From the NCBI GenBank assembly GCA_964570175.1, contig CAZMXG010000008.1, forward strand, positions 2,114 through 66,113: 64,000 nt of DNA, written 5' to 3'. The stretch is from an uncultured Heliomicrobium sp. Lineage in GTDB: Bacteria; Acidobacteriota; Blastocatellia; RBC074. A program made the translations under genes and the position numbers. Shown piece by piece: positions 5,638-48,195 of this stretch (position 1 is its first letter; the number at the start of each line of letters is the position of its first letter). The notes beneath the pieces are model-generated. The model did no database searches. It was given only the letters and a program-made list of their open reading frames with translations, and had not been told where the DNA came from.

Positions 5638-5770
5638 GTTTCAACGCAAAGACGCCAAGGTTCAAAGGCGCAAAGAACTTTTGGAAAGACGTTCGCCATG
5701 CCTCAAAATTTTACCAGATCATGCTTTGCGTCTTTGCGTCTTTGCTACTTCGCAGCTTTGCGTTTTGAAG
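5638..5770. repeat. Hairpin element with arms made of GCAAAGA/TCTTTGC-type short repeats
   Basis: Left arm: tttcaacgcaaagacgccaaggttcaaaggcgcaaagaac. Right arm: gctttgcgtctttgcgtctttgctacttcgcagctttgcgttttgaag. The ends (tttcaacgcaaag and ctttgcgttttgaa) are complementary. It lies in the spacer between two minus-strand genes. Confidence 0.5.
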
Positions 5771-8086: not shown

Positions 8087-10750
8087 ATGAAATTCTGGTG
8101 GCAACGCAAAGACGAAGAACTCGACGCCGAAATCCAAAACCACCTGGACGAAGCCATCCGCGACCGCATCGCACGCGGCGAAACGCCTGAACAAGCACGT
8201 CTCAATGCGCGGCGCGAATTCGGCAATGTGGGTTTGGTCAAGGAAGTCACGCGTGAGATGTGGGGCTGGGCTTCACTGGAACGCTTGGGACACGACGTGC
8301 GATTTGGCTTGCGGATGCTGCGGAAGAATCCGGGCTTTTCGTTGATTGCGATTCTGACGCTGGCACTCGGCATTGGCGCGAACACTGCGATTTTCAGTGT
8401 CGTCAACGCTGTATTGCTCAATCCCTTTGACTACGCGGAAGCCAAGCGAATTATGTTGCTGTCGTCTTCGCGGTTGAGCGAACCGAAAAGTTCAGGCGCA
8501 ATTTCTTATCCTAACTTTCTGGACTGGCAGCAACAGCAAACGACGTTTTCACATCTGGCGGCGGCGTGGAATCGAACGTTCAACCTGACCGGCGTCAGCG
8601 AACCTGTGCAGGTCAAAAGCGCGATCATTTCGCCCGAAGCCTTTCCCTTGCTGGACGTAGCGCCGCAACTTGGGCGCGTCTTTACCGCACAGGATAACGA
8701 ACTCAACGCGGCGCGCACCGTCGTGTTGAGTCACGCTTTTTGGCAGCAGCAGTTCGCGGGTGAGGCCAATGTCATTGGGCGTCAGTTGTTGCTCGACGAT
8801 CAGGCTTACACGGTGATTGGCGTGATGCCGCCGCGCTTTAAGTTTTGGGCGGGCGAAGTCTGGGTTCCCTTCGGTTTGTTCGGCAAGGAAGACTTCGCCA
8901 TCCAGCGTGGAGGTATCGTTGGGATTTCTGCCATAGGCCGCTTGAAATCCGGCGTGACGCTGGAACAGGCGCGCGCTGAATTCGACGTCATCGCCGCGCG
9001 GCTCGCTGCACAATATCCCGAAACGAATCACGGCAGCGGCGTGCGAATCGCTCCATGGAGCGATTCGGTCGGGCAAAACATTCGCACAGTCTTGCTGATG
9101 TTGATGGGAGCCGTTGGCTTCGTGTTATTGATTGCCTGCGCCAACGTAGCCAACCTGTTGCTGGCGCGGACGGCGACGCGGAAAAAGGAATTGGCGATTC
9201 GCGCGGTGCTGGGCGCTGGGCGCGGACGGCTGATGCGCCAACTTTTGCTCGAAAGCCTGCCGTTGGCGGTGCTCGCCAGTTTGGCTGGATGGTTGCTGGC
9301 GAATTGGGGACTGAAATTGATTTTGGCTTTGTTGCCTGACGGTCTGCTTCCGGCTGAAGCCAATGTGCGCCTAGACGCGCCCGTATTGCTGTTTGCATTG
9401 AGCCTGGCATTGCTGACTACGTTGCTGTGCGGACTCTTGCCTGCGCTGCGTTTTTCGCAAACGCGCGTCAATGAAAGTCTCAGCGAAGGAGGCCGCCTTT
9501 CCACTTCGGATGCAGGCAGCCGACGAATGCGTAGCGCGTTGGTCGTCATCGAAGTTGCACTTTCCGTCGTGTTGTTGGTCGGCGCGGGCTTGCTCATCAA
9601 AAGCTTTTACCGCTTGCAGCACACCGAACTGGGATTCAAGCCAGAATCGCTGCTGACTGTGGACCTGCTGTTGTCGCACAAAAAGTATACGCAAGCACGA
9701 CAGATCGAAACGTTTTTCAACCGTACATTGGAGCAGCTCAAAGCGCTGCCGGGCGTCGAAGCGGCAGCGACGATGAATGGGGGGCCGTATTCGGGCTGGG
9801 GCACCGGGATGCCGCTCGTTCGTGAAGGGCATAGTTATCGCAACGGTGAAATGAGTGGCAAGGAGTGTCACTATCTGCTCACGCAGGGAGATTACCTCGC
9901 CGTATTGGGGTTGCCGCTGGTGAGCGGGCGCAACTTCACCGAGCAGGAAATGTTGAGTGCGTCGCCAGTCGTCGTTATCAATCAGGCGGCGGCGGATAAG
10001 TTTTTCCCTGGTGAAATCGCGCTGGGGCAACGCTTTCGCTTGGGGGCACCTGACAATTTGCTTCCGCCTGATGCGCCGCCTACGGAAAAAAACGCCTGGC
10101 TGACCATCATTGGCATCGTCAAAAACCATCGGCCCATTGATTTGGCAATGCCGTATCAACCGACAACTTTTCTGCCAATGGCGCAAGAGACACGCAATGC
10201 GCGCATGCTCAATGCCATGACGTTGATGCTGCGAACTTCGCAAGACCCGGCGACGTTGATCCGCGCCGTGCGCCAACGGCTGCGCGAACTCGACCCCGAT
10301 CAACCCATTCTGCGCATCGCCACAGTGGACGCGCGCATCGCCGAATCGCTCAAGCCGCAGCGATTCAACACAATACTGATGAGCCTGTTCGCTGTGTTGG
10401 CGTTAATGCTGGCTGTGATAGGGCTTTACGGTGTGCTGGCTTACACCGTCGTGCAGCGCACGCACGAAATCGGCATCCGCCTCGCGCTCGGTGCGCAATC
10501 CGGCCAAATCATTGCAATGGTGATGAAGCAAGGAATGTCGCTCACGCTGTTGGGCATGGCCCTCGGACTGTCGGGAGCGGTGGCCTTAACTCGCCTGCTC
10601 GAACGCTTGCTTTACGGGATAAGCACAACTGATACGCCGGCGTTCATCGCAATCGCACTGTTGCTGTTGGCCGTCGCGGTGCTGGCATGTTGGATTCCGG
10701 CACAACGAGCAGCGAAAGTTGACCCGATGATTGCTCTTCGCTGTGAATAA
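8087..10750 (+). CDS. ADOP-family ABC transporter permease (MacB-like periplasmic domains plus two FtsX domains)
   Basis: 887 aa. The N-terminal 'permease prefix' reads WQRKDEELDAEIQNHLDEAI. It has two FtsX-like 4-TM modules, and the C-terminal motif is AAKVDPMIALRCE. Pairing with PadR is typical of Acidobacteriota. Confidence 0.9.
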   Translation: MKFWWQRKDEELDAEIQNHLDEAIRDRIARGETPEQARLNARREFGNVGLVKEVTREMWGWASLERLGHDVRFGLRMLRKNPGFSLIAILTLALGIGANTAIFSVVNAVLLNPFDYAEAKRIMLLSSSRLSEPKSSGAISYPNFLDWQQQQTTFSHLAAAWNRTFNLTGVSEPVQVKSAIISPEAFPLLDVAPQLGRVFTAQDNELNAARTVVLSHAFWQQQFAGEANVIGRQLLLDDQAYTVIGVMPPRFKFWAGEVWVPFGLFGKEDFAIQRGGIVGISAIGRLKSGVTLEQARAEFDVIAARLAAQYPETNHGSGVRIAPWSDSVGQNIRTVLLMLMGAVGFVLLIACANVANLLLARTATRKKELAIRAVLGAGRGRLMRQLLLESLPLAVLASLAGWLLANWGLKLILALLPDGLLPAEANVRLDAPVLLFALSLALLTTLLCGLLPALRFSQTRVNESLSEGGRLSTSDAGSRRMRSALVVIEVALSVVLLVGAGLLIKSFYRLQHTELGFKPESLLTVDLLLSHKKYTQARQIETFFNRTLEQLKALPGVEAAATMNGGPYSGWGTGMPLVREGHSYRNGEMSGKECHYLLTQGDYLAVLGLPLVSGRNFTEQEMLSASPVVVINQAAADKFFPGEIALGQRFRLGAPDNLLPPDAPPTEKNAWLTIIGIVKNHRPIDLAMPYQPTTFLPMAQETRNARMLNAMTLMLRTSQDPATLIRAVRQRLRELDPDQPILRIATVDARIAESLKPQRFNTILMSLFAVLALMLAVIGLYGVLAYTVVQRTHEIGIRLALGAQSGQIIAMVMKQGMSLTLLGMALGLSGAVALTRLLERLLYGISTTDTPAFIAIALLLLAVAVLACWIPAQRAAKVDPMIALRCE

Positions 10751-27554: not shown

Positions 27555-28521
27555 AGTCAGTGTCATCATTCCGGCTTACAATGTAGCGCCGTTTATCGCC
27601 GCGACCCTTCGCAGTGCGCTGGGGCAGACTTATGGCAATTGCGAAGTGATCGTCGTTGATGATGGCTCTACCGACACAACGTTGGAGGAAATTTTCTTCT
27701 CCACGAAGGCACACGAAGATTCACGAAGAAAACCGGAAACATCTATTGCTGGCTTCGTGTCTTCTTCGTGTGACTTCGTGGAAAAATCAGTTCGAGTTTT
27801 TAGCAAATCCAATGGCGGCCCTGCTTCGGCCAGAAACCTGGCGATCAAGAATTCGCGCGGAAAGTACATTGCCTTTCTGGATGGCGATGATTTGTGGATG
27901 CCCGGCAAGCTGGCTGAACAAGTCGAGTTTTTGGAACGTAACCCGGGAGTCGGAATGGTTTTTGCCGAAGCCGCGACTTTTACTGAGCAAAACGACCAAA
28001 AAGAGTTTCGGGGAAAAATTGGTTACACCGGAGAAACTTCGTTTTGCTATTTGCTGCTGGGCGATCACATTCCGAATTCGACGGTGATGATTCGCCGCGA
28101 ATGCGTAGACAAAATTGGGTTGCTGAATGAAAGCCGCGAACTGATCGCCGTCGAAGATTACGAATACTGGCTGCGACTGGCGCGCGCTTTCCCGATCAAA
28201 GGCATCACCAAGACAATGGCGTATTACCGAGTTCACGCAAACAACTTGATGGGTGAAGGCGAAGACATTGAGCGCGGATTGCGCTTGCCGCTGCTGGCCC
28301 TGAAGGAAGCTGAACGACTTTTTCCTGACTGCTGGCAACAATGCGACGTAGAAAGGGAAGTGCTGCTTGCTCGGTTGCACATTCGCGCCGGCTTTGCGTG
28401 GAAGCAGCGTGGTGAATGGAGAAAATGCCTGAAAAAGTTTCGTCAGGCGTTACAGCTTCGTTTTAACCTCAGAGTCATTCGCTGGATCGTCGCGGCAACT
28501 TTGCTCAAACGTTGGTCATAA
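27544..28521 (+). CDS. Glycosyltransferase family 2 carrying an in-frame 27-codon palindromic insertion
   Basis: MQPKVSVIIPAYNVAPFI...VIVVDDGSTDTT...[insertion]...SNGGPASARNLAI...AFLDGDD. The ATG at 27544 overlaps the upstream gene by 11 nt. Confidence 0.85.
   Translation: MQPKVSVIIPAYNVAPFIAATLRSALGQTYGNCEVIVVDDGSTDTTLEEIFFSTKAHEDSRRKPETSIAGFVSSSCDFVEKSVRVFSKSNGGPASARNLAIKNSRGKYIAFLDGDDLWMPGKLAEQVEFLERNPGVGMVFAEAATFTEQNDQKEFRGKIGYTGETSFCYLLLGDHIPNSTVMIRRECVDKIGLLNESRELIAVEDYEYWLRLARAFPIKGITKTMAYYRVHANNLMGEGEDIERGLRLPLLALKEAERLFPDCWQQCDVEREVLLARLHIRAGFAWKQRGEWRKCLKKFRQALQLRFNLRVIRWIVAATLLKRWS
27701..27781. repeat. 81-bp palindromic CACGAAG/CTTCGTG element, in-frame inside a GT2 gene (copy 1)
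   Basis: ccacgaaggcacacgaagattcacgaag-[24 nt]-cttcgtgtcttcttcgtgtgacttcgtgg. The arms are complementary apart from about 3 mismatches or indels. The length of 81 is 27 codons. It encodes STKAHEDSRRKPETSIAGFVSSSCDFVE. Confidence 0.75.
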
Positions 28522-29517
28522 ATGAATCAGCCATTGGTTTACATCATCATTTTGAACTTCAACGGCAGCCGCTGGTTGCAGCCTTGTCTGCAATCGCTGC
28601 GCATGACGGAGTACACGAACTTCAAAACCGTGCTGGTGGATAACGCTTCCAGCGACGACAGCGTCGAACTGGTGCGCGGCCAATTTCCTGAAGTCGAAAT
28701 CATCGTCAATTCGGAAAACCTGGGGTTTTCCGAAGGCAACAACGTCGCGATCCGAAAGGCTCTGGCTGAAGACGCTGATTACGTTGTTTTGCTAAACCCG
28801 GACACGAAAGTCACGCCACGATGGCTTAGTGAATTGATTGCGATTGGCGAGAAGGAAAAGGACGTTGGCATCCTCGGTGCAGTGCAACTGACTTATGACA
28901 GCGAAGAGTTCAACACTTGGACGAAGACTGCTTTAAGCCATCATCTCGATGAGCTTTCTTTATCTTCCACGAAGTCACACGAAGAAAACACGAAGGCTGA
29001 AACCGGCGATTCGTCTTTGCTTCGTGATGCTTCGTGTGACTTCGTGGGAAACCGAGATTGGGTTCCAGTCGAATGGGTCGAAGGCGCTTGTTTTGCCATC
29101 AAGCGCAAAGTCATAGAACAAGTTGGATTGCTTGATCCGATCTACTTCGCGTTTTACGAAGAAATTGATTTCTGCCGCCGAGCCGCTTTCCGTGGCTACA
29201 AAACCGCGCTTGTTCCGCGCAGCCGCATTCATCATTTTCGTGGCGGCAGTTGGGAAGCCAACGCCACCATCAAACGCCAACGAGATTACCGCTGTGATCG
29301 CAGCCAATTCATCTACAGCCTGACAGACCCGCGTCGTTCGATGGTGGCAAACTTAGGCTGGTATTTGAGGACGCTGGCGACAAAAACAAGCGAAGCCGTT
29401 CGTGCTTTTAGCTTGATAAAAGCCTGGGACTTGATACGAATCCAGGTTGAGTTACTCGGCACGCTGCCAAAGCTTACTAGCAAATGGCAGCGTGACCGAA
29501 GTAATTCATCTCAATAA
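28522..29517 (+). CDS. Glycosyltransferase family 2 (rhamnosyltransferase-like) carrying the same in-frame palindromic insertion
   Basis: Contains VYIIILNFNGSRWL...VLVDNASSDDS...NLGFSEGNN...LNPD...FAFYEEIDFCRR. Confidence 0.85.
   Translation: MNQPLVYIIILNFNGSRWLQPCLQSLRMTEYTNFKTVLVDNASSDDSVELVRGQFPEVEIIVNSENLGFSEGNNVAIRKALAEDADYVVLLNPDTKVTPRWLSELIAIGEKEKDVGILGAVQLTYDSEEFNTWTKTALSHHLDELSLSSTKSHEENTKAETGDSSLLRDASCDFVGNRDWVPVEWVEGACFAIKRKVIEQVGLLDPIYFAFYEEIDFCRRAAFRGYKTALVPRSRIHHFRGGSWEANATIKRQRDYRCDRSQFIYSLTDPRRSMVANLGWYLRTLATKTSEAVRAFSLIKAWDLIRIQVELLGTLPKLTSKWQRDRSNSSQ
28967..29047. repeat. 81-bp palindromic CACGAAG/CTTCGTG element, in-frame inside a GT2 gene (copy 2)
   Basis: ccacgaagtcacacgaagaaaacacgaagg-[22 nt]-gcttcgtgatgcttcgtgtgacttcgtgg. 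The outer 18 nt on each side are perfectly complementary. The length (81) and codon phase (element starts at codon position 2) match copy 1. Confidence 0.75.
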
Positions 29518-31974: not shown

Positions 31975-32045
31975 GACAGGATGAGCAGGATTTCTCAGGA
32001 TTAAGTAACAGAAAGAAATCCTGATTGAATCCTGCAAATCCTGTC
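31975..32045. repeat. Solo CAGGATT/AATCCTG hairpin element
   Basis: Left arm gacaggatgagcaggatttctcaggatt (31975-32002). Right arm aatcctgattgaatcctgcaaatcctgtc (32017-32045). About 23 of 28 positions pair. The left arm is 24/28 identical to the left arm at 42780-42807. Confidence 0.7.
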
Positions 32046-37031: not shown

Positions 37032-37643
37032 ATGACAGCTTTACCCGAAAGAAAACAGTCCCTAGAGGAATACCTTGATCTGCTGCACAAATCTGAGGAA
37101 CGTTTGGAGTATTTCGATGGTGAGGTTGTTTCGATGGCGGGTGGCAAGAAGTCGCATAATCGGGCAACTCGAAATATCAGCCGAAAATTAGGCGAGCTTC
37201 TTGACGGGAAACCTTGTGAAGTGTTCGACGGGAATCAGGCTGTGAAAACGATAAAAGCTCCGCCGTTTCGATTCCCGGATGCTTCGGTTGTATGTGGGGA
37301 GGCGATATTCGAAGAAATGCGCGGCCACGACATTCTGGTAAATCCGGTTTTGATTGTTGAGGTCTTGTCTCCTTCGACCAATGCCTTTGACCGCGATGTA
37401 AAATTTCTGGCATATCAGGAAATCCCCAGCTTCAAAGAGTATTTGCTGGTCGCATCTGAACGCGCGCACGTAATTCAGTACATTCGCCAAGCTGCTGGCG
37501 GTTGGTTGCGCCGCGATGTTATAGGGCTTGAAAGCCATGTGGTGCTTGAATCTGTCGGTGCATTACTGCAACTCAGTGACATTTATCGTATGGTTACATT
37601 TCCTGAGTCTGCATCTGATAGGCCCACTCTTGACCCAGCGTAA
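37032..37643 (+). CDS. Uma2 family (DUF820) PD-(D/E)XK-like endonuclease
   Basis: Contains [12 protein letters not shown]...PDASVVCG...[11 protein letters not shown]...D...K...[10 protein letters not shown], the family pattern. RBS AGGAGA. Confidence 0.8.
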
Positions 37644-37755: not shown

Positions 37756-39369
37756 ATGAAAAATCGCCCCTCTTCGCACTTATTATTGCTGCTGTTGCTG
37801 GTGGTGTTGGACGCGCTGGCGTATGTGGCCATTTACCGGGCTGGTGTCGCGCGCGGTTTTTCGCCGTCCGTCTTGCTGGCTTGCCGTGATCTGGCGCTGT
37901 TCATTCCTATCTTTTTCGTATTTGTCTGGTTTGCGCGACGGCACAAATACGCGGGCGATCTGACATTGTTCACCGTCGCCATCTTGCTTTTCAGCATAGG
38001 CCAATTTGTCCAATATAGGCTATTTACCGATCCTGAGTACGCTGCCGGAAATCGCGCCGAAGTTCGGCAAGCCCGGCTGGCCAAAGCCAGAGTTCAGCAA
38101 TATAAAAGCATCAATCAGTTTTACGACGCCGAAAAGAAAAAGGCGCTGTTTGGCGATCCAAACTTTCAGCTTCAGACCACAACGCCTGTCGAAACGAACG
38201 AACCGCAATACTGGACGATTGGACGCATTTTCACCTCCGTTTCCACATTGATTCCCTTGGCGGCATTTTTAGGCTTTGCGCTGGCATTTGCGTTTGTGCG
38301 GCGAGACGACATTTTGCTTTTGCTGCAACGCAACAGCTTTCTAATTGGATTGCTGACCACGTTGCCGTTCGCTTTCATCGCCATTTTTCTGTCGGAACGC
38401 GGCAAGTCGCTTGGCAACACCACGCCCTGGGAGCCGGTAAAGATCACCTTTCTGCTCAGTTACGCGGGGATTCTGGCCGACCATTATCGAAACCTGTCGC
38501 GCACACATTGGGGCATTCCTCCGTGGCGGTTTGTGCTGCCGTTTTTGCTGGTAGCGGCATTGCCGATTGTGCCGTTTTTTGCGCTGCAAGACTTCGGCCA
38601 AATGCTGGTGTTTCTGGGAGCTTACGTCACACTCTACGTGGTCGCAGTCCGGCGCTTGCCCCAAGTGACAATTGCGATTGGGTTAATGGCTGGGCTGCTG
38701 GCAGTTTCGATTTTTGCCGTTGGTATTTACAACACCGTGACCAATGCGTTTACGGATGGCGCGCAGATCGGCGCAGTCGAGCGGGTAAAAAACATTGTTG
38801 ACGAAGGTGTGCCGGATCGCATCAAACAGCGCTTTTACTTATGGCGTCACGGCGGCCTTGCCCCCGGCGACGATCAAGATTGGTGGGCCAAAGAAGCGCC
38901 GCGTGTGCCGGGCAACACGGATGAAGAAAAATGGTATAACAAATACGCGTTTCAGCCTTCGCAGGCGTTGTTTGGTGTCAGTGATGGGCGTGTGTTGGGA
39001 GCGGGGCTGGGTCGGGGTTATCCCGAAACCGTTCCGATTGCCGATTCGGATTTTATCTATGCCGTTATTGCCGAAGAGATGGGAATTGTCGGCGGGGCAA
39101 TTATCATCTTCGCGTTTATCATTGTTGTCGTCGCCGGAATGCGCACGGCAATCGAAGCGCGCGATATGTTCACCAAATTGATTGCGGCGGGCGTGACTGC
39201 ATTTTTAGGATTCCAGGCAATTGTCAATATCGGTGGTGTGTTGCGAATGTTGCCTATGACTGGCATCACGCTCCCGTTTGTCAGTCATGGAGGCTGGTCG
39301 CTAATTACCAGCTTTTTTATGTTAGGCATGTTAATGGCGATCTCGCATCGCAATAACCAAGTCAACTGA
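37756..39369 (+). CDS. FtsW/RodA/SpoVE (SEDS) family protein
   Basis: Polytopic. The C-terminal region [18 protein letters not shown]...[16 protein letters not shown] is canonical SEDS. The ATG at 37756 (MKNRPSS...) avoids overlap with Uma2. Confidence 0.85.
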
Positions 39370-39376
39370 CATAAGA

Positions 39377-40975
39377 ATGAAAGTTACTGTTGGGCAAATT
39401 ACGGATAAGGGACTGAAGCGTCAGGCGAATGAAGACAATTTGCTGGCAATGCCTAGCCGCGGTCTGTTCATTGTGGCCGACGGCGTAGGTGGTCGGCGTG
39501 GCGGGCAAACGGCCAGTCGAACGGTGACGGAAGTTTTTGAAAAGGTGTTCAGCAACCCACAGCCAACAACGAATTCCGATTTGCCGATGGAAGATTTGCG
39601 CAAGCTGGTGCATGAAACGATTGATCTCTGCAACCAGAAAATCTACACGGAAGCGGAGATGAATCAGGAGTTGGAAGGGATGGCGACGACGATTGTGCTA
39701 GCTGCCGCCAAAGACAATCGAGCCATCATCGCTCATGTCGGTGACAGCCGGGTCTATCGTTGCGACGCGCGCGGTTTGGTTCGCCTGACCGAAGATCATA
39801 GCGAGGTCAATGAAGCCGTGCGCCAGGGTTGGTTGACTGCCGAACAAGCCGAAACGCATCCGCGCCGCAATGTCATTAGCCGCGCCATCGGAGCCGATTC
39901 TGAGGTCGAACCCGAAATCATAGAAATTGAAGTTGACGAAACGACGACGCTGCTGTTGTGCAGCGACGGCATCACTCGTCACATTCGCGACGATCAGTTG
40001 GAACGGCTGTTGCGAAGCGGCAATCATCCGCAAACCGTTTGCGAAACTTTCAAGCAGCTTTGTTACAACGAAGGCGCGGAAGACAATCTGACCGCCATCA
40101 TCGTGGATTTCGGCGAGCGCGGGTATGTGGACGAACAAACACGCCCAATGCGCTCGATGAGTCCGGCAATGTCCATGGCATCGGCAAGCGCAGAAAAACC
40201 AAGAAAGAAAATTGAAATTTCGTTGAGTGAGCCGGAGCCGGAAGTTGAAATCGTTTCTGAAGAAGTTCCCGACACCAACCATATCCCGGCGACAGCGCCA
40301 CAAGCGTTATTGCCGCCTGCGCTGGATGATTTCCCGGACGAACCTGAATCGTCTCAGTCAAGTGATCCTTTACCGATTGCAGACCAGCCCCAGGTTTCAA
40401 GCCGAAAAAAAGTTTTCAACATTGCTACGGTGGAGGAAGCCGGGCAGAAAGTCGAGATGTCGAAGTTTATGCGAATGAGTGTTTTGATTGTGACTTTGCT
40501 GGCGGGATTTATCCTGGGCGGGCTTTTTGGCGGGCCGTTGCAGCGAGTGGTCAACCGTTCGGGCGGCCCTCTGGCCGAAGAGCAGCCGCGATTGTTGCGT
40601 TATTCGCCGCGTGATGCCGGCGTCGCTTCGGCGTTTGCGCTGTTGAATGAAGGGCGGCTTGATGACGCTCGACAGGAACTTAATGCAATTCTCGCCCGCG
40701 ATGCAAACAATGCCGAAGCCCATTACTGCTTCGGACGCCTGTATTTCACCGAAAAGAAATATGAAGAGGCGATCAATCATTTCAAACTGGCGGCGACCAA
40801 CAATCAGGATTTGGACGAAGGATGGGTGTTCATTGCCATGGCGTATTTGCAAATTGGACAGGCACGAAACGCCGCTGACAGTTTGCAAAAATTGATGGCG
40901 CCGAATGCTCCGCCATCGTCTTCGCCAACCCCTGCTGGCGCTGCGCCGGCGAGTTCGGTGAAACCAGTTGGATAA
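39377..40975 (+). CDS. PP2C-family Ser/Thr phosphatase with C-terminal TM and TPR region
   Basis: Contains TDKGLKRQANEDN, FIVADGVGG, GMATTIV, HVGDSRVY, LLLCSDGIT, and EDNLTAIIVD. These are followed by a TM segment (MSVLIVTLLAGFILGGLFGG) and TPR-like repeats. Confidence 0.85.
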   Translation: MKVTVGQITDKGLKRQANEDNLLAMPSRGLFIVADGVGGRRGGQTASRTVTEVFEKVFSNPQPTTNSDLPMEDLRKLVHETIDLCNQKIYTEAEMNQELEGMATTIVLAAAKDNRAIIAHVGDSRVYRCDARGLVRLTEDHSEVNEAVRQGWLTAEQAETHPRRNVISRAIGADSEVEPEIIEIEVDETTTLLLCSDGITRHIRDDQLERLLRSGNHPQTVCETFKQLCYNEGAEDNLTAIIVDFGERGYVDEQTRPMRSMSPAMSMASASAEKPRKKIEISLSEPEPEVEIVSEEVPDTNHIPATAPQALLPPALDDFPDEPESSQSSDPLPIADQPQVSSRKKVFNIATVEEAGQKVEMSKFMRMSVLIVTLLAGFILGGLFGGPLQRVVNRSGGPLAEEQPRLLRYSPRDAGVASAFALLNEGRLDDARQELNAILARDANNAEAHYCFGRLYFTEKKYEEAINHFKLAATNNQDLDEGWVFIAMAYLQIGQARNAADSLQKLMAPNAPPSSSPTPAGAAPASSVKPVG

Positions 40976-41069: not shown

Positions 41070-42767
41070 ATGCCTGAATTGAAACTGGAACACAGTTTGG
41101 TGGATGGCCGCTACGAAGTGTACGAGCGGCTGACCCGCGGCAGTTACGCCGAAATTTTCGTCGCGTACGATCGTGCGGTCAGCCGCGCGCCGGTTGTTAT
41201 CAAAGCGCTCAATACCAGTTTGCAAGGCACGCCCGACCCTGACCTTGAACGTACTCTGGTTGAAAATTTCCAGAACGAAGCCGTTGCGCTGGATGCGGTT
41301 CGCCATCCGCACGTGATCTTACGGCTTGGGCACGGCACGGCGGCGGATTTGCGCGGCGTTCCATTTCATTACCTGGTGATCGAATACATGCCTGGCGGCG
41401 ACCTGCTCGAACTTTGCCGCCATCGCCCTGACAAAGCGCTGCCGCTGGAGGAAGCGCTGTTTTATTTTCATCAGGCTTGTGAAGCGCTGGCCTTTGCCCA
41501 TGGAAAAGGAATCATCCACCGCGATCTGAAGCCAAACAATTTCCTGCTCAGCGCTGACAAACGCATCCTGAAAGTTGCGGACTTTGGGGTGGCCAAAATC
41601 ACCAGCGGCGAATCCACCGAAATTACGCGCGTTGGGGCTGATGTGTATGCTCCGCCCGAACATAACCCGAACGAAGACACAGGCGAATTGCGGCATTTGA
41701 CCACGGCGGCGGATGTGTATTCGCTGGCAAAAAGTTTTTATACGGTTGTCTGCGGGCGCGCGCCAGGGCAGTTTCGCTGTGATCCGATTACTTCGTTGCC
41801 GGAAACCCTGATGAGCAAGCCGTGGGGCAATGCTTTGCTGAAAGTGTTGTGCCAGGCGACAGATGACAACCCCAAAGCCCGTTATGCCACTGTGGCGGAG
41901 TTCTGGCATGAACTGGCGCAGGTCGCTGCATTGGCGCCCACGGTGAAAATCGAAGAACTGCCGGACGAAGAAACCATCGTCAAACCCCGCCAGAAATTTG
42001 ACACAGGCGCCTTTCCACAAATTCCCGTGCAGCCGGATTTTGATCCAACACCTGCGACATCCCATTTGCAGGAAATCGTTTCACCTGCGCAGCTTGTAGG
42101 AACTGAGCCGCTGGGAGCGCTTGATTCGACAGAAAAACTGAGTGCTGAGAATACTGTGCCTCAAGCTGAGCCTGTGAAAACAGAAGCTCCCAAAGAAGCC
42201 GGAGAAAGCAAACCGACGGTTCAACGCGCTGAACGTCCCGGAAAGATCTTTATTGATTTGCAGCCCTCCAAAGCGCCTTCGGCAATCCCAAAACCTGCCA
42301 TGCCGATTCAGCCAAATCAGGCAACGCCTTTGCCCGCGAAACCAGGGCAAGTCAAGCCGCCCGCACAGGCGGCCCAGAAGGTCAAAAAGCCTCCGAAAAT
42401 GGCCAACCGGTTTTCTGAAAAGATGCGCCGACGAGTTTTTATTGGATTTCTGGCGGCGGCCTTTGTGGGGTTGCTGGCAAGTGTGTACAACTTTTTCAAA
42501 GGCGGCGAGTTCGGCGCGCCGCGCGAAATCGAAGTGTTGGCGCAGGCAATGTATGTTCGCAGCGGGCCGGGAGGCCAATTCAAACCCTACGGCACCGTTG
42601 CCGCCAATACCCACCACAAAGTCGTTCAGGAAAATGAGCAGGGCTGGATGCTGATTGAAGTCAGTCAGTGGATGAAATTAGAGACAGATGCGCCTTTAGA
42701 CATCCGTCAGGGTTGGGTTTATGGAAAATCAGATTATGTTCGTGTAGTCTCACGCCGCTGGTGGTGA
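41070..42767 (+). CDS. Ser/Thr protein kinase (Hanks type) with TM and a C-terminal SH3-like domain
   Basis: Contains GSYAEIFVAYD, VIKAL, HRDLKPNNFLL, DFGVAK, and APPE. These are followed by a TM segment (VFIGFLAAAFVGLLASVY) and ...MYVRSGPGGQFKPYGTV...GWVYG. Confidence 0.9.
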   Translation: MPELKLEHSLVDGRYEVYERLTRGSYAEIFVAYDRAVSRAPVVIKALNTSLQGTPDPDLERTLVENFQNEAVALDAVRHPHVILRLGHGTAADLRGVPFHYLVIEYMPGGDLLELCRHRPDKALPLEEALFYFHQACEALAFAHGKGIIHRDLKPNNFLLSADKRILKVADFGVAKITSGESTEITRVGADVYAPPEHNPNEDTGELRHLTTAADVYSLAKSFYTVVCGRAPGQFRCDPITSLPETLMSKPWGNALLKVLCQATDDNPKARYATVAEFWHELAQVAALAPTVKIEELPDEETIVKPRQKFDTGAFPQIPVQPDFDPTPATSHLQEIVSPAQLVGTEPLGALDSTEKLSAENTVPQAEPVKTEAPKEAGESKPTVQRAERPGKIFIDLQPSKAPSAIPKPAMPIQPNQATPLPAKPGQVKPPAQAAQKVKKPPKMANRFSEKMRRRVFIGFLAAAFVGLLASVYNFFKGGEFGAPREIEVLAQAMYVRSGPGGQFKPYGTVAANTHHKVVQENEQGWMLIEVSQWMKLETDAPLDIRQGWVYGKSDYVRVVSRRWW

Positions 42768-42779
42768 CAAGGTTATTTT

Positions 42780-43231
42780 GACAGGATGTACAAGATTTTT
42801 CAGGATTGGAGGAAAAGATGGAAGACAACGCCATTACTGAAATAATCATTGGTTGTGCTTATGAAGTGCATAACAGGTTGGGCTCAGGTTTTTTTGAAAA
42901 AGTGTATGAGAACGCGTTGCGAATTGAGCTGGAAAAGCGAGGTTTGAAGGTCTTGCAGCAAGAGCCGATTAAGGTCTGGTATGAAAATCAGATTATTGGA
43001 GACTATCAAGCTGACCTATGGGTAGAGGACCGGATAATCGTAGAGCTAAAGGCAATTTTGGCTTTGAGTAAAGAAAATGAATTACAACTGGTCAATTATC
43101 TGTCTGCTACAAAAGTTGATACAGGGTTGCTTATCAATTTCGGCTCCTCCGTTCAGGTGAAACGGAAATACCGCGAATACAAGCCTTCCCAATCCAACAA
43201 AACAATCCTGAAAAATCTTGTTAATCCTGTC
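42780..43231. mobile_element. Candidate cassette: a GxxExxY gene enclosed by 28-nt inverted arms of the CAGGATT hairpin family
   Basis: The left arm gacaggatgtacaagatttttcaggatt (42780-42807) and the reverse complement of 43204-43231 (gacaggattaacaagatttttcaggatt) match at 26 of 28 positions. No transposase is present, so mobility is an inference. Confidence 0.4.
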
Positions 43232-43252
43232 TATACCCAGACAAAGAGGTAG
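42818..43252 (+). CDS. GxxExxY protein (PD-(D/E)XK nuclease-like family)
   Basis: Contains GSGFFEKVYENAL (GxxExxY), DLWVEDRIIVELK (D...ExK), and LLINFG. The ATG at 42818 has a GGAGGA RBS. The last ~16 codons (KTILKNLVNPV...) read through the right hairpin arm. Confidence 0.85.
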   Translation: MEDNAITEIIIGCAYEVHNRLGSGFFEKVYENALRIELEKRGLKVLQQEPIKVWYENQIIGDYQADLWVEDRIIVELKAILALSKENELQLVNYLSATKVDTGLLINFGSSVQVKRKYREYKPSQSNKTILKNLVNPVYTQTKR

Positions 43253-43258
43253 AGTGCA

Positions 43259-44086
43259 ATGAAGCTTTGGGGCGAAGTCAAAAAGTGGCTGGACGGCGAA
43301 GACGCGATTTCGCAAACGCCGGAAGCGCAGGCGCAATTGAGCGAGTGGGATGAGTTTTTCGTCAAAATCGCGCGCGAAGTGGAAGTCGTCATGAAACGCG
43401 AAATGTTCACGCCGCCGGGCGGCCAGACCTATCTGCCCGGCGAATACATCATTTACCTGAGCAAGGAAGACGACGCGATGTGGCAGGGGCGCAAACGCGA
43501 AGGCCTGGAAGAAGGCTTGGGGCTTAGTTTGTCGCAGCGCGCCAAGGAAATTGTTGGCGGAAAACAGCTTAAGGCAGACAAGATCGCGCTCAGTTTGAGC
43601 ATTGACGGCGCACTCAACAAAGGCCAGGTGCGCGTCCAGGCTGTTTGGGATGACGATTCGCCCAGAACCGAAGTCACCGCCCGCAAGAAGAAACCCACGC
43701 CGAAACCGATCGAAGTCGAACCGGGAAACACAGAACCTTTGGAGCCTGATGAGGGCGAAAAGACTTTGGTTCGCCCGCGAGTCGCTTTGTTTACTGTCAA
43801 CTTTCAGCGTCAGGGCGGCGAACCCGAAACTTTCAAATCCATGAAGGCCAAGATCGAAATTGGCCGCGGTTCCAAGGACTTTCCGGTGGACGTGAAACTG
43901 GATGGCGATCAGGAAGTCAGCCGCAAGCACGCGATTCTGTCGAAACAGGAAAGCGCATTCAAATTGGAATGCATTGGCCGCAATGCCATCGAGGTAGATG
44001 GCCGAGAAATTCAGCCGGGCGAAAGCGCGGAAGTGAAGCCGGGGCAAAATATCAAGATCGGCATCTATGAATTGAAGATTGCATAA
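43259..44086 (+). CDS. FhaA-like protein (DUF3662 N-terminal domain plus C-terminal FHA domain)
   Basis: The C-terminus [50 protein letters not shown]...[10 protein letters not shown] is an FHA domain. Confidence 0.85.
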
Positions 44087-47900: not shown

Positions 47901-47995
47901 TTCGGGGAATCCTCCTTCGCTGCTATGCTAGCCCGGCAGTTTCAACACAGTAAAGCCAGAGGAAAAAAACAGAGGAAAAAATATGATACCTGCTC

Positions 47996-48182
47996 AGCCC
48001 CAACGGGGCTGGATATGACAGCCCAGTGCAACGCACTGGGAACGAGAATCAAAAGATTGCACGAGCCCCAACGGGGCGAAATAACAAGGTTACCCATTTC
48101 GCCCTTTCAGGGCTTTGGGGCCATCCCATTGCTTACCCGGCGCGTCGCACCGGGCTGCTGCATTTTGCCCCCTTGGGGCTGA
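47996..48182. repeat. About 185-nt nested imperfect palindrome (structured REP/MITE-like element), copy 2
   Basis: Terminal hairpins are cagccccaacggggctg and gcccccttggggctg. atatgacagcccagtg pairs with caccgggctgctgcat. The central hairpin is gccccaacggggcgaaat...atttcgccctttcagggc. The layout matches 1564-1748, with many compensating differences. Confidence 0.6.
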
Positions 48183-48195
48183 ACAATTACAAAAC

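Follow-up and report, generated by a model that had tools for sequence, protein, structure and literature searches.

The stretch of DNA analysed here, hereafter the window, is 64,000 nt long and contains a signalling operon in which Pfam profiles identified a Ser/Thr protein kinase gene (Pkinase; 41070–42767, forward strand) and, downstream of it, a FhaA-like FHA gene (FHA/FhaA_N; 43259–44086, forward strand). As the initial annotation had proposed and the Pfam results confirmed, an additional unit is wedged between these two host genes. It is a palindrome of 452 bp (42780–43231) made up of two inverted arms, a ribosome-binding site and an intact GxxExxY gene of the predicted PD-(D/E)XK type, that is, an IVS-like hairpin cassette. 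The stop codon of the kinase gene lies 12 nt before the left arm, and the C-terminus of the kinase (..SRRWW*) is unchanged with or without the element.

A repeat search placed the arms at 42780–42808 and 43203–43231. Each is 29 nt long, one base longer than the 28-nt arms (26 of 28 positions matching) reported initially; 27 of the 29 positions (93%) are complementary and 394 nt separate the two. The left arm (forward strand), which was also recovered by a pattern search and is kept in orthologues, consists of three ACAGGAT-type units (GACAGGAT, ACAAGAT and TCAGGATT), and shares its final base with the ribosome-binding site of the GxxExxY gene. The right arm (given on the same strand) is its reverse complement and was found by both searches. 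The arms had at first been read as tandem heptamers; the units have instead the core ACAGGAT(T) and a spacing of 9–10 nt. The arm consensus GACAGGATGNRCARGATTTYTCAGGATT has exactly three matches in the 64 kb, namely both arms and positions 31975–32002, and zero matches are expected according to 100 shuffles. In the RNA, both the minimum-free-energy and the centroid structures pair the right arm with the left one (z = -3.7). The GC content is 0.41–0.42 within the element and 0.54–0.58 in the flanks, which, together with the profile matches described below, agrees with the earlier description of a complete, A+T-richer GxxExxY ORF bracketed by the arms. A Pfam search found no transposase in the cassette, and there was no Rfam rRNA match either around it or at 20 other GxxExxY loci. 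The cassette is thus located between protein-coding genes and not in helix 25 or 45 of 23S rRNA.

The gene itself (42818–43252, forward strand) encodes 144 aa and belongs to PF13366 (PDDEXK_3; E 1.3e-40, 138.8 bits against a cut-off of 22) and TIGR04256 (GxxExxY; E 2.7e-40, 137.3 bits against a cut-off of 35), not to PF05635 (S23p / four-helix-bundle). We assigned the start to the ATG at 42818 in preference to the TTG at 42806, given that every homologue starts with MEDNAIT..., and a ribosome-binding site, GGAGG (42808–42812, forward strand), precedes this ATG by 5 nt and is retained in orthologues. The motif G24-F-F-E27-K-V-Y30 as well as D66 and E76-L-K78 are invariant or nearly so in alignments. 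The AlphaFold model (pLDDT 86) has a folded core of residues 1–124 (42818–43189) with the order alpha-alpha-beta-beta-beta-beta-alpha-beta-beta, a restriction-endonuclease-like fold. Its best Foldseek matches are lambda exonuclease, Cas4, MGME1 and tRNA-splicing endonuclease, with probabilities up to 1.0 for lambda exonuclease and the SSO0001 Cas4; Hjc ranked lower (E 0.02–0.08). The predicted fold and the conserved E27, D66, E76 and K78 identify the protein as a putative minimal PD-(D/E)XK nuclease. It shares the predicted fold and catalytic residues with Cas4, lambda exonuclease and Hjc but differs from them in consisting of a minimal core of 124 residues that lacks an Fe-S cluster and additional domains; all TM-scores are below 0.5, and a PDB sequence search returned no similar solved structure.

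Beyond the core, the C-terminal tail ..SQSNKTILKNLVNPVYTQTKR (43190–43249, forward strand) is read through the right arm into the host flank and lies outside the fold, residues 125–144 being disordered in the model (pLDDT < 50). That the 3′ end of the ORF (..KTILKNLVNPVY..) is translated from the right arm had already been noticed initially and is borne out by the sequence. Homologues bear NPVNPV-type tails, and translated repeat arms explain these as well as the odd QDLQD- and MNADERR-type tails and the fused ORFs found among database proteins.

The family is large, with 15,126 representative 50%-identity clusters matching at E ≤ 0.001, and full-text literature searches returned essentially nothing on PF13366/TIGR04256 and no account of GxxExxY-hairpin elements. 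A reading of the gene as a defence-system or phage gene was dropped, as neither PADLOC nor PHROGs gave a match for the protein. Carriage by plasmids or phages was likewise rejected: in plasmids, phages and IMG/VR the gene is almost absent, with 8 plasmid records, one haloarchaeal virus and 2 viral contigs.

Several features of the locus bear on its expression. The upstream neighbour of the GxxExxY gene is co-oriented with it in 37 of 43 loci, and no promoter-like site was found upstream of the gene in the window. The sole forward-strand promoter match within the element (43011–43038) falls inside the ORF, and promoter matches are about as frequent in this region as in shuffled sequence. At the downstream junction (43244–43261, forward strand), AAGAGG (43244–43249) is followed by the GxxExxY stop codon TAG (43250–43252) and by the FHA start codon at 43259, so that the stop sits between the ribosome-binding site and the ATG of the FHA gene. 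The layout is identical in loci L001 and L004 and would be compatible with translational coupling.

The simplest reading of the arms would be a chance inverted repeat in an intergenic spacer or the ordinary intrinsic terminator of the operon, nothing more. We give it practically no credence. A consensus scan called no terminator-like site in the element; the stem is A+T-rich and not G+C-rich, and what follows the right arm is tatacccaga, not a T tract. The arms also stand between co-transcribed genes, are conserved in orthologues and recur beside distant GxxExxY genes. This answers the possibility of a terminator with no similarity to other sites, which had been raised at the outset: the arms recur beside GxxExxY genes across distant metagenomes. 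Shuffling (three pattern matches against zero expected), the presence of the arms at other sites and the family-wide association described below refute both chance and a terminator.

A subtler possibility is that the arms are an RNA device only, a processing or stabilising RNase III stem around a host-beneficial gene that tunes expression of the kinase and FHA genes, with nothing mobile today. The predicted stem in the operon transcript, the placement of the GxxExxY stop codon and the co-orientation with the upstream gene all speak for it, RNase III is known to excise IVS stems (PMC4990558), and one stem position runs A-T / G-T / G-C among orthologues. The stem mismatches as a whole (G-T vs A-C) are mixed and do not separate pairing at the RNA level from pairing at the DNA level. 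We regard this explanation as improbable, since it leaves unexplained the presence/absence alleles with exact ends, the same arms at unrelated loci, the gene-less copies and the conservation of unit sequence rather than of pairing only.

These alleles emerged from a comparison of 80 orthologous Blastocatellia loci that contain the FHA gene. In most relatives the spacer between the kinase and FHA genes is 1–50 nt long. In one sub-clade it holds the arms with the gene, a solo hairpin at the same offset, a hairpin of another type, or nothing. When the empty locus L031 is set against the filled L030, the two have the left flank ..gggaaaattaa in common and the insert is exactly TAGACAGG...CCTGTCTA. 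Presence and absence at a single site are also seen close to the window: the window and L023 are filled, while L022, whose FHA protein is 98.5% and kinase 93% identical to those of the window, lacks the element and departs from the window sequence directly after the kinase stop codon. The empty/filled comparisons revealed no clear target-site duplication; AAAT(C)TGA-like strings on both sides of the element in L089 were considered as one and judged unconvincing. Gain and loss affect arms and gene together, as a single unit with the ends TAGACAGG...CCTGTCTA. The solo hairpins of this spacer start at the same offset past the kinase stop and their lineages are nested among gene-bearing ones in the host tree; they are alleles of the same insertion. 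Both kinds of locus that the initial annotation had proposed to look for, those without the insert and those with a solo hairpin only, were therefore found.

The insertion is old. The gene has a dN/dS of 0.04–0.10 with saturated dS (> 2), and despite this saturation of synonymous sites the unit cores are near-invariant in orthologues, with variable spacers between them. The ancestor of one Blastocatellia sub-clade acquired the cassette in its kinase–FHA spacer and passed it on vertically, with gene and arms both under strong purifying selection. Sister lineages have repeatedly lost the cassette, had it replaced or kept no more than a hairpin without the gene. The GC3 of the gene is 12–25 points below that of its neighbours despite this long residence, a deficit that vertical inheritance alone does not explain. 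The gene-bearing form is rare, with one copy in the window and none elsewhere in ~1.1 Mb of relatives. The suggestion of a transposase-less selfish cassette thus holds as to the missing transposase and fails as to a recent insertion, and the remark in the initial annotation that GxxExxY genes are multi-copy in some genomes is not matched by these low counts.

Gene-less hairpins occur outside the spacer as well. One lies in the window at 31975–32045 (no strand assigned), the coordinates given in the initial annotation, and was also found by the pattern search and unit clustering; its neighbours are an aminotransferase gene and a zinc-ribbon gene. Its arms (31975–32002 and 32018–32045) enclose a 15-nt loop, and its DNA fold reaches -20.8 kcal/mol (z = -6.0). 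Solo hairpins fold into three 8–9-bp helices with mismatched spacers between them (z = -6 to -7.6). An Rfam search of the solo hairpin returned only a sub-threshold match to a miRNA model. Its orthologue at L037:1-62 has an identical right flank, and further solo hairpins were found in relatives. Their density in the element clade is ~1 per 90 kb, with copy numbers extrapolated from ~0.35 Mb. In the kinase–FHA spacer, the loops of the solo hairpins retain the 13–14 nt that in gene-bearing copies lie immediately before the right arm. This 3′ remnant is firm (13 of 14 nt); for the 5′ half of the loop, an origin from the first codons (GAAGACA) is no more than a suggestion.

The arms are not confined to this operon. 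Close homologues of the gene bear the same arms at three unrelated sites: one follows thiC (L010), another an efflux pump gene (L011), and the third lies between YceI and Aldedh genes (L012). We surveyed one branch of the family, whose members share at least 45% identity with the window protein (45–71%), by means of a metagenome scan built from 18 sequences, used instead of a first 72-sequence alignment that was too diverse. Shuffles and control windows served as the null; they replaced mismatched left and right flanks, an inflated null because different loci have the same arms. A strong inverted repeat spans the gene at 40 of 73 loci, compared with 2 of 209 controls (Fisher p = 6e-26). Tandem ...GAT units at 9–10-nt spacing occur at most 250 nt away from the gene at 69 of 80 diverse GxxExxY loci (86%), and GAT-anchored tandem arrays in 6 of 175 control windows (3%). 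The units are spaced by 9 nt (106 cases) or 10 nt (58 cases), never by 6–7. A locus shares its unit type with its nearest protein neighbour in 50 of 63 cases (expected: 41%), a correlation that host phylogeny alone could cause. In the sampled branch, the ...GAT repeat type beside GxxExxY genes is the rule, as the proposal that other GxxExxY genes would be flanked by such arms had anticipated. The idea that the hairpin is the mobile unit stands in so far as arms and gene form one insertion/deletion unit; it needs amending, as the gene does not always lie inside the hairpin. At some loci complete hairpins flank it on one or both sides, in the order hairpin-gene-right arm or hairpin-gene-hairpin, a variety not expected from simple insertion of the gene into the loop.

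It could be argued that the hairpins are REP- or terminator-like sequences of the host, moved by other means, and that the gene is a captured passenger with a nuclease role (repair, toxin or defence) unrelated to the arms. Blastocatellia genomes are indeed rich in other gene-less tandem-unit hairpin families, several unrelated hairpin types have colonised the same spacer, and the four-helix-bundle family is carried in similar hairpins. Among these, PF05635 IVS-protein cassettes occur in the same operon, at another junction, in L022, L040 and L187. However, four-helix-bundle genes of the same lineage have period-7 arms (8 of 8), a type different from the 9–10-nt ...GAT repeats, which are specific to GxxExxY genes across distant samples. 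L131 contains CACAGAG hairpins, yet its GxxExxY gene is bracketed by CAGGAT hairpins. The difference between 86% of loci and 3% of controls, the conservation of unit cores and not of spacers, and the lack of a PADLOC match further argue against a passive cargo, which we consider quite unlikely. The initial annotation had left the gene as 'cargo or agent'; since the type of repeat depends on the gene family, the balance leans towards agent.

Among known elements, the cassette is most readily compared with the IVS of 23S rRNA. The one in Coxiella is a 428-nt element with a 28-bp terminal-inverted-repeat stem cut by RNase III and with three tandem GACAGAT heptamers before a small ORF (PMC4990558). 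Both are ~430–450 nt long, within the 0.4–0.8 kb typical of IVS inserts, and have a terminal-inverted-repeat stem of ~28 bp, one small sense ORF, no transposase and short tandem repeats in the arm just before the start codon; both are sporadically present among relatives and have ORF-less versions. Unlike the rRNA elements in helix 25/45, our cassette resides in the spacer of an mRNA operon and encodes a PD-(D/E)XK-type GxxExxY protein in place of a four-helix-bundle S23p/Avd-like one. Its arm units are spaced 9–10 nt and not 7, and its stem is predicted only, whereas RNase III cutting is known for the rRNA elements.

Two further comparisons concern mobility. With pairs of autonomous transposons and MITEs the cassette shares terminal inverted repeats, presence/absence alleles and gene-less derivatives in which both ends survive together with a few internal terminal bases. 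It differs in having neither a transposase nor a detectable target-site duplication, in its internally repetitive arms and in the great scarcity of gene-bearing copies. Free-standing homing endonuclease genes offer another model, and one homing enzyme, I-Ssp6803I, is itself of the PD-(D/E)XK type. Here too a small nuclease gene is a presence/absence allele at a fixed site, and spread by break repair is proposed. The cassette, however, is not in an intron or intein, its presumed target is a repeated hairpin instead of a unique conserved gene sequence, and long purifying selection at a single vertical site is unusual for a homing cycle.

REPIN/RAYT systems, in which a single-copy gene goes with tens to hundreds of repeats per genome, resemble the cassette in other respects: the gene has few copies, is passed on vertically and evolves under purifying selection, inverted copies of a palindromic repeat flank it and are also scattered through intergenic regions on their own, and the repeat type tracks the protein lineage (PMC3116915, PMC5581495, bioRxiv 10.1101/2021.07.10.451892). 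On this model, an immobile, low-copy, vertically inherited GxxExxY enzyme would copy or maintain the dispersed hairpins, and the repeats around the gene would be left over from its origin. The long vertical descent of the gene at a single locus, with purifying selection acting on it, is in line with this, as are the few genes relative to many solos (~1 per 90 kb, with no second gene in ~1.1 Mb), the conservation of solo hairpins between relatives and the near absence of the gene from plasmids, phages and viral contigs. The pattern agrees with published RAYT features (PMC5581495, PMC3116915). There are also differences: the cassette repeats are 9–10-nt tandem units and not REP palindromes, arms and gene are one insertion/deletion unit with the gene often inside a single hairpin, many lineages lose the gene along with, or from within, the arms, and gene and arms occur together at several unrelated sites. 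The enzyme is moreover a predicted PD-(D/E)XK nuclease and not an HUH Y1 (IS200/IS605-like) transposase; to our knowledge, no HUH-type strand-transfer chemistry is known for a PD-(D/E)XK nuclease alone. We therefore regard a RAYT-like role as rather unlikely.

The explanation that we prefer, with confidence somewhat short of even, is an IVS-like cassette that depends on read-through transcription, encodes a nuclease cognate to its arms and spreads in a homing-like manner into solo hairpins. All steps of this mechanism are inferred from sequence. The promoterless gene would be transcribed by read-through of the operon, and the arms would pair in the transcript as a 29-bp stem. By analogy with the rRNA IVS, cutting of this stem by an RNase III-type enzyme may let the cassette reside in the operon without destroying it. 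The nuclease, which is probably cognate to its own arms, could recognise the 9–10-nt units, about one per helical turn, in a hairpin or cruciform and cut hairpin copies. Break repair from a gene-bearing copy would then carry the cassette into solo hairpins, and internal deletion would yield solo hairpins again. Domestication, or some use to the host, would account for the long residence at one site and the low copy number no less well than active homing would.

A broader and more tentative idea, which we consider possible rather than likely, is that GxxExxY proteins are the structure- and sequence-specific nucleases of a widespread class of transposase-less palindromic tandem-repeat elements. 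The rRNA IVS would be a sister branch of this class, the 9–10-nt ...GAT units would act as the code for recognition, and cassettes with a gene would invade solo hairpins, or turn into them, through repair of breaks made by the nuclease.

The origin and mobility of ORF-bearing rRNA IVS, such as those of Coxiella burnetii and Leptospira, have been unexplained since ~1990 (PMC4990558). The cassette described here links this old puzzle to protein-coding operons, inside which IVS-like cassettes also occur, and the kinase–FHA spacer offers a natural series of alleles (gene-bearing, solo, other hairpin, empty) for following the origin and decay of such elements. The strong and specific link to repeats names a candidate substrate, hairpins of ACAGGATT-type repeats, and with it a first testable function for PF13366/TIGR04256, a large nuclease family of unknown function.

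The inverted arms that the initial annotation placed around a GxxExxY ORF are real: they occupy 42780-42808 and 43203-43231 and measure 29 nt, with 93% complementarity and 394 nt between them. Between the arms is a ribosome-binding site (GGAGG, 42808-42812), and the ORF runs from the ATG at 42818 to the TAG at 43252. As had been noted, the right arm encodes the 3′ tail of the ORF; together with host flank it specifies the last ~20 residues. The element is A+T-richer than its surroundings (GC 0.41 inside vs ~0.56 in the flanks). Profile matches also placed the cassette directly between a Ser/Thr kinase gene and an FhaA-like FHA gene, in the order FtsW/RodA, PP2C-TPR, Ser/Thr kinase, cassette, FhaA-like FHA protein, redoxin.

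A degenerate consensus of the arms matched the 64-kb window three times, at both arms and at 31975-32002. The gene-less relative proposed at 31975-32045 indeed sets three CAGGAT units opposite three ATCCTG units (fold z = -6). A chance repeat or an ordinary terminator was excluded, as shuffles are expected to give no match and a consensus terminator scan was negative. Other gene-less tandem-unit hairpins occur at 27697-27785, 28967-29047 and 5643-5764; two of them consist of CACGAAG units with 10-nt spacing and one of GCAAAGA-type units. Longer imperfect inverted repeats at 1541-1770 and 47991-48185 (arms of 50-68 nt, ~74% complementary) contain GCCCCAACGGGGC-like palindromes and may represent another repeat family.

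To compare the spacer among relatives, all of them metagenome-assembled genomes (MAGs) or metagenome contigs, an FHA-protein scan of species-representative genomes was used, which yielded 80 orthologous loci. The names of the closest homologues place the source genome in the Blastocatellia (Acidobacteriota). Both kinds of locus sought after the initial annotation, those lacking the insert and those with a solo hairpin only, were found. In most relatives, including L031-L036, the spacer is empty (1-50 nt). In other assemblies (L001-L009, L023, L029, L030, L037 and L047; ~490 nt), this spacer encodes a protein 77-99% identical to that of the window, flanked by the arms seen there. A solo CAGGAT hairpin of 113-122 nt is present in L024, L027 and L089, and an apparent duplication of it, flanking a run of N, fills 336 nt in L040. 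Other loci carry a hairpin of CACGAAG units, the type also seen in the window (L026, L028, L062), another short palindrome (L022, 4823-4906; L025, 9933-10001) or, in more distant genomes, further unrelated hairpin types (L038, L078, L086, L087, L101). The solo and gene-bearing forms start at an identical offset after the kinase stop codon. Additionally, the loops of the solo forms end at the 3′ side in aaccaaataaaaca, which is identical at 13 of 14 positions to the 14 nt preceding the right arm of gene-bearing copies (compared against L029). Immediately 3′ of the FHA gene of L097, a giant hairpin (8491-8802) sets ~15 tandem GGTCAGC heptamers opposite ~15 reverse-complement units, with arms of ~105 nt. 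Some of the MAGs L022, L023, L029, L031, L033, L040, L041, L044, L053, L080, L089, L095 and L099 are titled 'Heliomicrobium', 'Heliobacteriaceae' or 'Clostridia'; these titles of Acidobacteriota MAGs look wrong, since gene content and nearest relatives are those of Blastocatellia.

The unit of gain and loss is visible in closely matched pairs. The empty L031 and the filled L030 have a common left flank (..gggaaaattaa) and differ by exactly TAGACAGGAT...ATCCTGTCTA. L022, with 98.5% identity to the window in FHA and 93% in the kinase, is near-identical as far as the kinase stop codon; beyond that point the sequences part, and L022 carries no cassette. Spacer states are mixed across the kinase+FHA tree, where gene-bearing loci have sisters in another state: L022 (other palindrome) for the window, L026 (CACGAAG hairpin) for L001, and the empty L031 for L004/L030. 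The spacers of L022 and L025 have a common allele (..cagtaccgcgcgcggtagcaagcgggt..), yet the two are not sisters on this tree, which suggests that spacer alleles are exchanged between lineages by recombination.

Orthologous GxxExxY copies show dN/dS of 0.04-0.10 with mostly saturated dS, and their divergence tracks that of the hosts. This marks the cassette as old and passed on vertically; the solo and empty states that lie within groups of gene-bearing lineages therefore represent losses. In the non-coding left arm, the ACAGGAT cores are kept despite saturated synonymous sites, while the 1-3 nt between units vary. The insert is a discrete palindromic cassette under constraint, repeatedly lost or reduced to a solo hairpin. 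In every genome the gene retains a GC3 of 0.40-0.53 vs 0.57-0.72 in its neighbours, despite long vertical residence; for the window gene (42818-43189) and its orthologues in L001, L004, L029 and L047 the deficit is 12-25 points.

Homologues 66-78% identical to the window protein occupy three other sites, each with CAGGAT-type inverted arms: one downstream of thiC (L010), one downstream of a gene for an RND efflux pump (L011) and one flanked by YceI and an aldehyde dehydrogenase gene (L012-L021). At the 3′ end of thiC (L010, 9955-9962; L103, L109, L110) the stop codon TAG is formed by the first three bases of the terminal TAGACAGGAT, so the cassette end provides the stop codon of the host gene.

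The survey was extended to the family branch at least 45% identical to the window protein by a metagenome scan, which gave 80 loci with proteins of 45-71% identity. An ungapped inverted repeat across the gene (score of at least 13 between 200-nt flanks) was detected in 40/73 loci vs 2/209 control windows (Fisher p = 6e-26), and tandem arrays of GAT-ending units lay within 250 nt in 69/80 loci vs 6/175 controls. The units are not the tandem heptamers named in the initial annotation: successive units are spaced by 9 nt (106 cases) or 10 nt (58 cases) and never by 6-7 nt. The units are of the types GACAGGAT, ACACAGAT, ACGCAGAT, ACACGGAT and ACACTGAT, with (T)AGAC frequent at the outer end. Nearest-neighbour proteins had the same unit type in 50/63 cases vs 41% expected, and the repeat type is specific to the GxxExxY gene family. 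The architecture varies from a gene inside a single hairpin, as in the window, to a complete upstream hairpin with a downstream right arm or a complete hairpin on each side. In 37/43 loci the gene has the same orientation as its upstream neighbour. On one metagenome contig (L131, 900-1110 and 1700-1800) two hairpin families are adjacent: CAGGAT units lie immediately on either side of the GxxExxY gene, and CACAGAG units lie outside them.

The ORF (42818-43252) matches PF13366 PDDEXK_3 (E 1.3e-40) and TIGR04256 GxxExxY (E 2.7e-40). Alignments show little or no variation at E27 (inside the GxxExxY motif), D66, E76 and K78. The AlphaFold model has a pLDDT of 86 overall and >90 over residues 1-120, the last ~20 residues being disordered. 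In a Foldseek search it matched lambda exonuclease, Cas4 SSO0001, MGME1 and a tRNA-splicing endonuclease best, with Hjc ranked lower (E 0.02-0.08) and all TM-scores <0.5; a sequence search of the PDB found no related solved structure. The conserved residues and the fold matches allow us to regard the protein as a minimal, apparently active PD-(D/E)XK nuclease. Its family has 15,126 representatives at 50% identity (E <= 0.001) and is essentially unstudied in the full-text literature. Among a set of database proteins (P0373, P0377, P0384; P0241, P0243, P0245), some join a GxxExxY domain through an NPVNPV linker to a prepilin-type N-terminal protein, and are gene calls that overrun the arm and enter the following gene; the others are genuine proteins of 250-270 aa with two GxxExxY domains in tandem. 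The NPVNPV, QDLQD and MNADERR tails and the downstream-gene fusions are translated arms. A second small PD-(D/E)XK gene of the same operon neighbourhood, a Uma2-family (PF05685) putative restriction-endonuclease-fold gene at 37032-37643 between fpg and ftsW, is conserved in position in L001, L004 and L187; no flanking arms were seen around it.

A sister cassette occupies the FtsW|PP2C junction of L022 (894-1405), L040 (2642-3168) and L187 (2455-2981), where inverted arms of GACAGTA heptamers enclose a 128-aa PF05635 '23S rRNA intervening sequence protein' gene of the four-helix-bundle (IVS/Avd-like) type. At this junction (39369-39377) the window has 7 nt only and no such cassette. Period-7 inverted arrays also bracket five further PF05635 homologues, which lie at other junctions or on viral contigs, and the period was 7 in 16/16 flanks examined of PF05635-type genes. 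The Coxiella 23S IVS is a 428-nt element whose inverted repeats at either end make up a 28-bp stem cut by RNase III and whose S23p ORF is preceded by three GACAGAT heptamers (PMC4990558). On the strength of this resemblance the window element has the design of an IVS, but it differs in its gene (GxxExxY instead of S23p), in unit spacing and in its host context, an mRNA operon.

These features suggest how the cassette may operate. The GxxExxY gene would be transcribed by read-through, and the arms of the transcript could form a 29-bp RNA stem cleavable by RNase III. Alternatively, the element might be an RNA device only, the gene might be passively carried, or gene and repeats might form a RAYT-like partnership. 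Under the nuclease-based mechanism that we propose, the protein would recognise its own arm units and cause breaks, and their repair would copy or delete the cassette.
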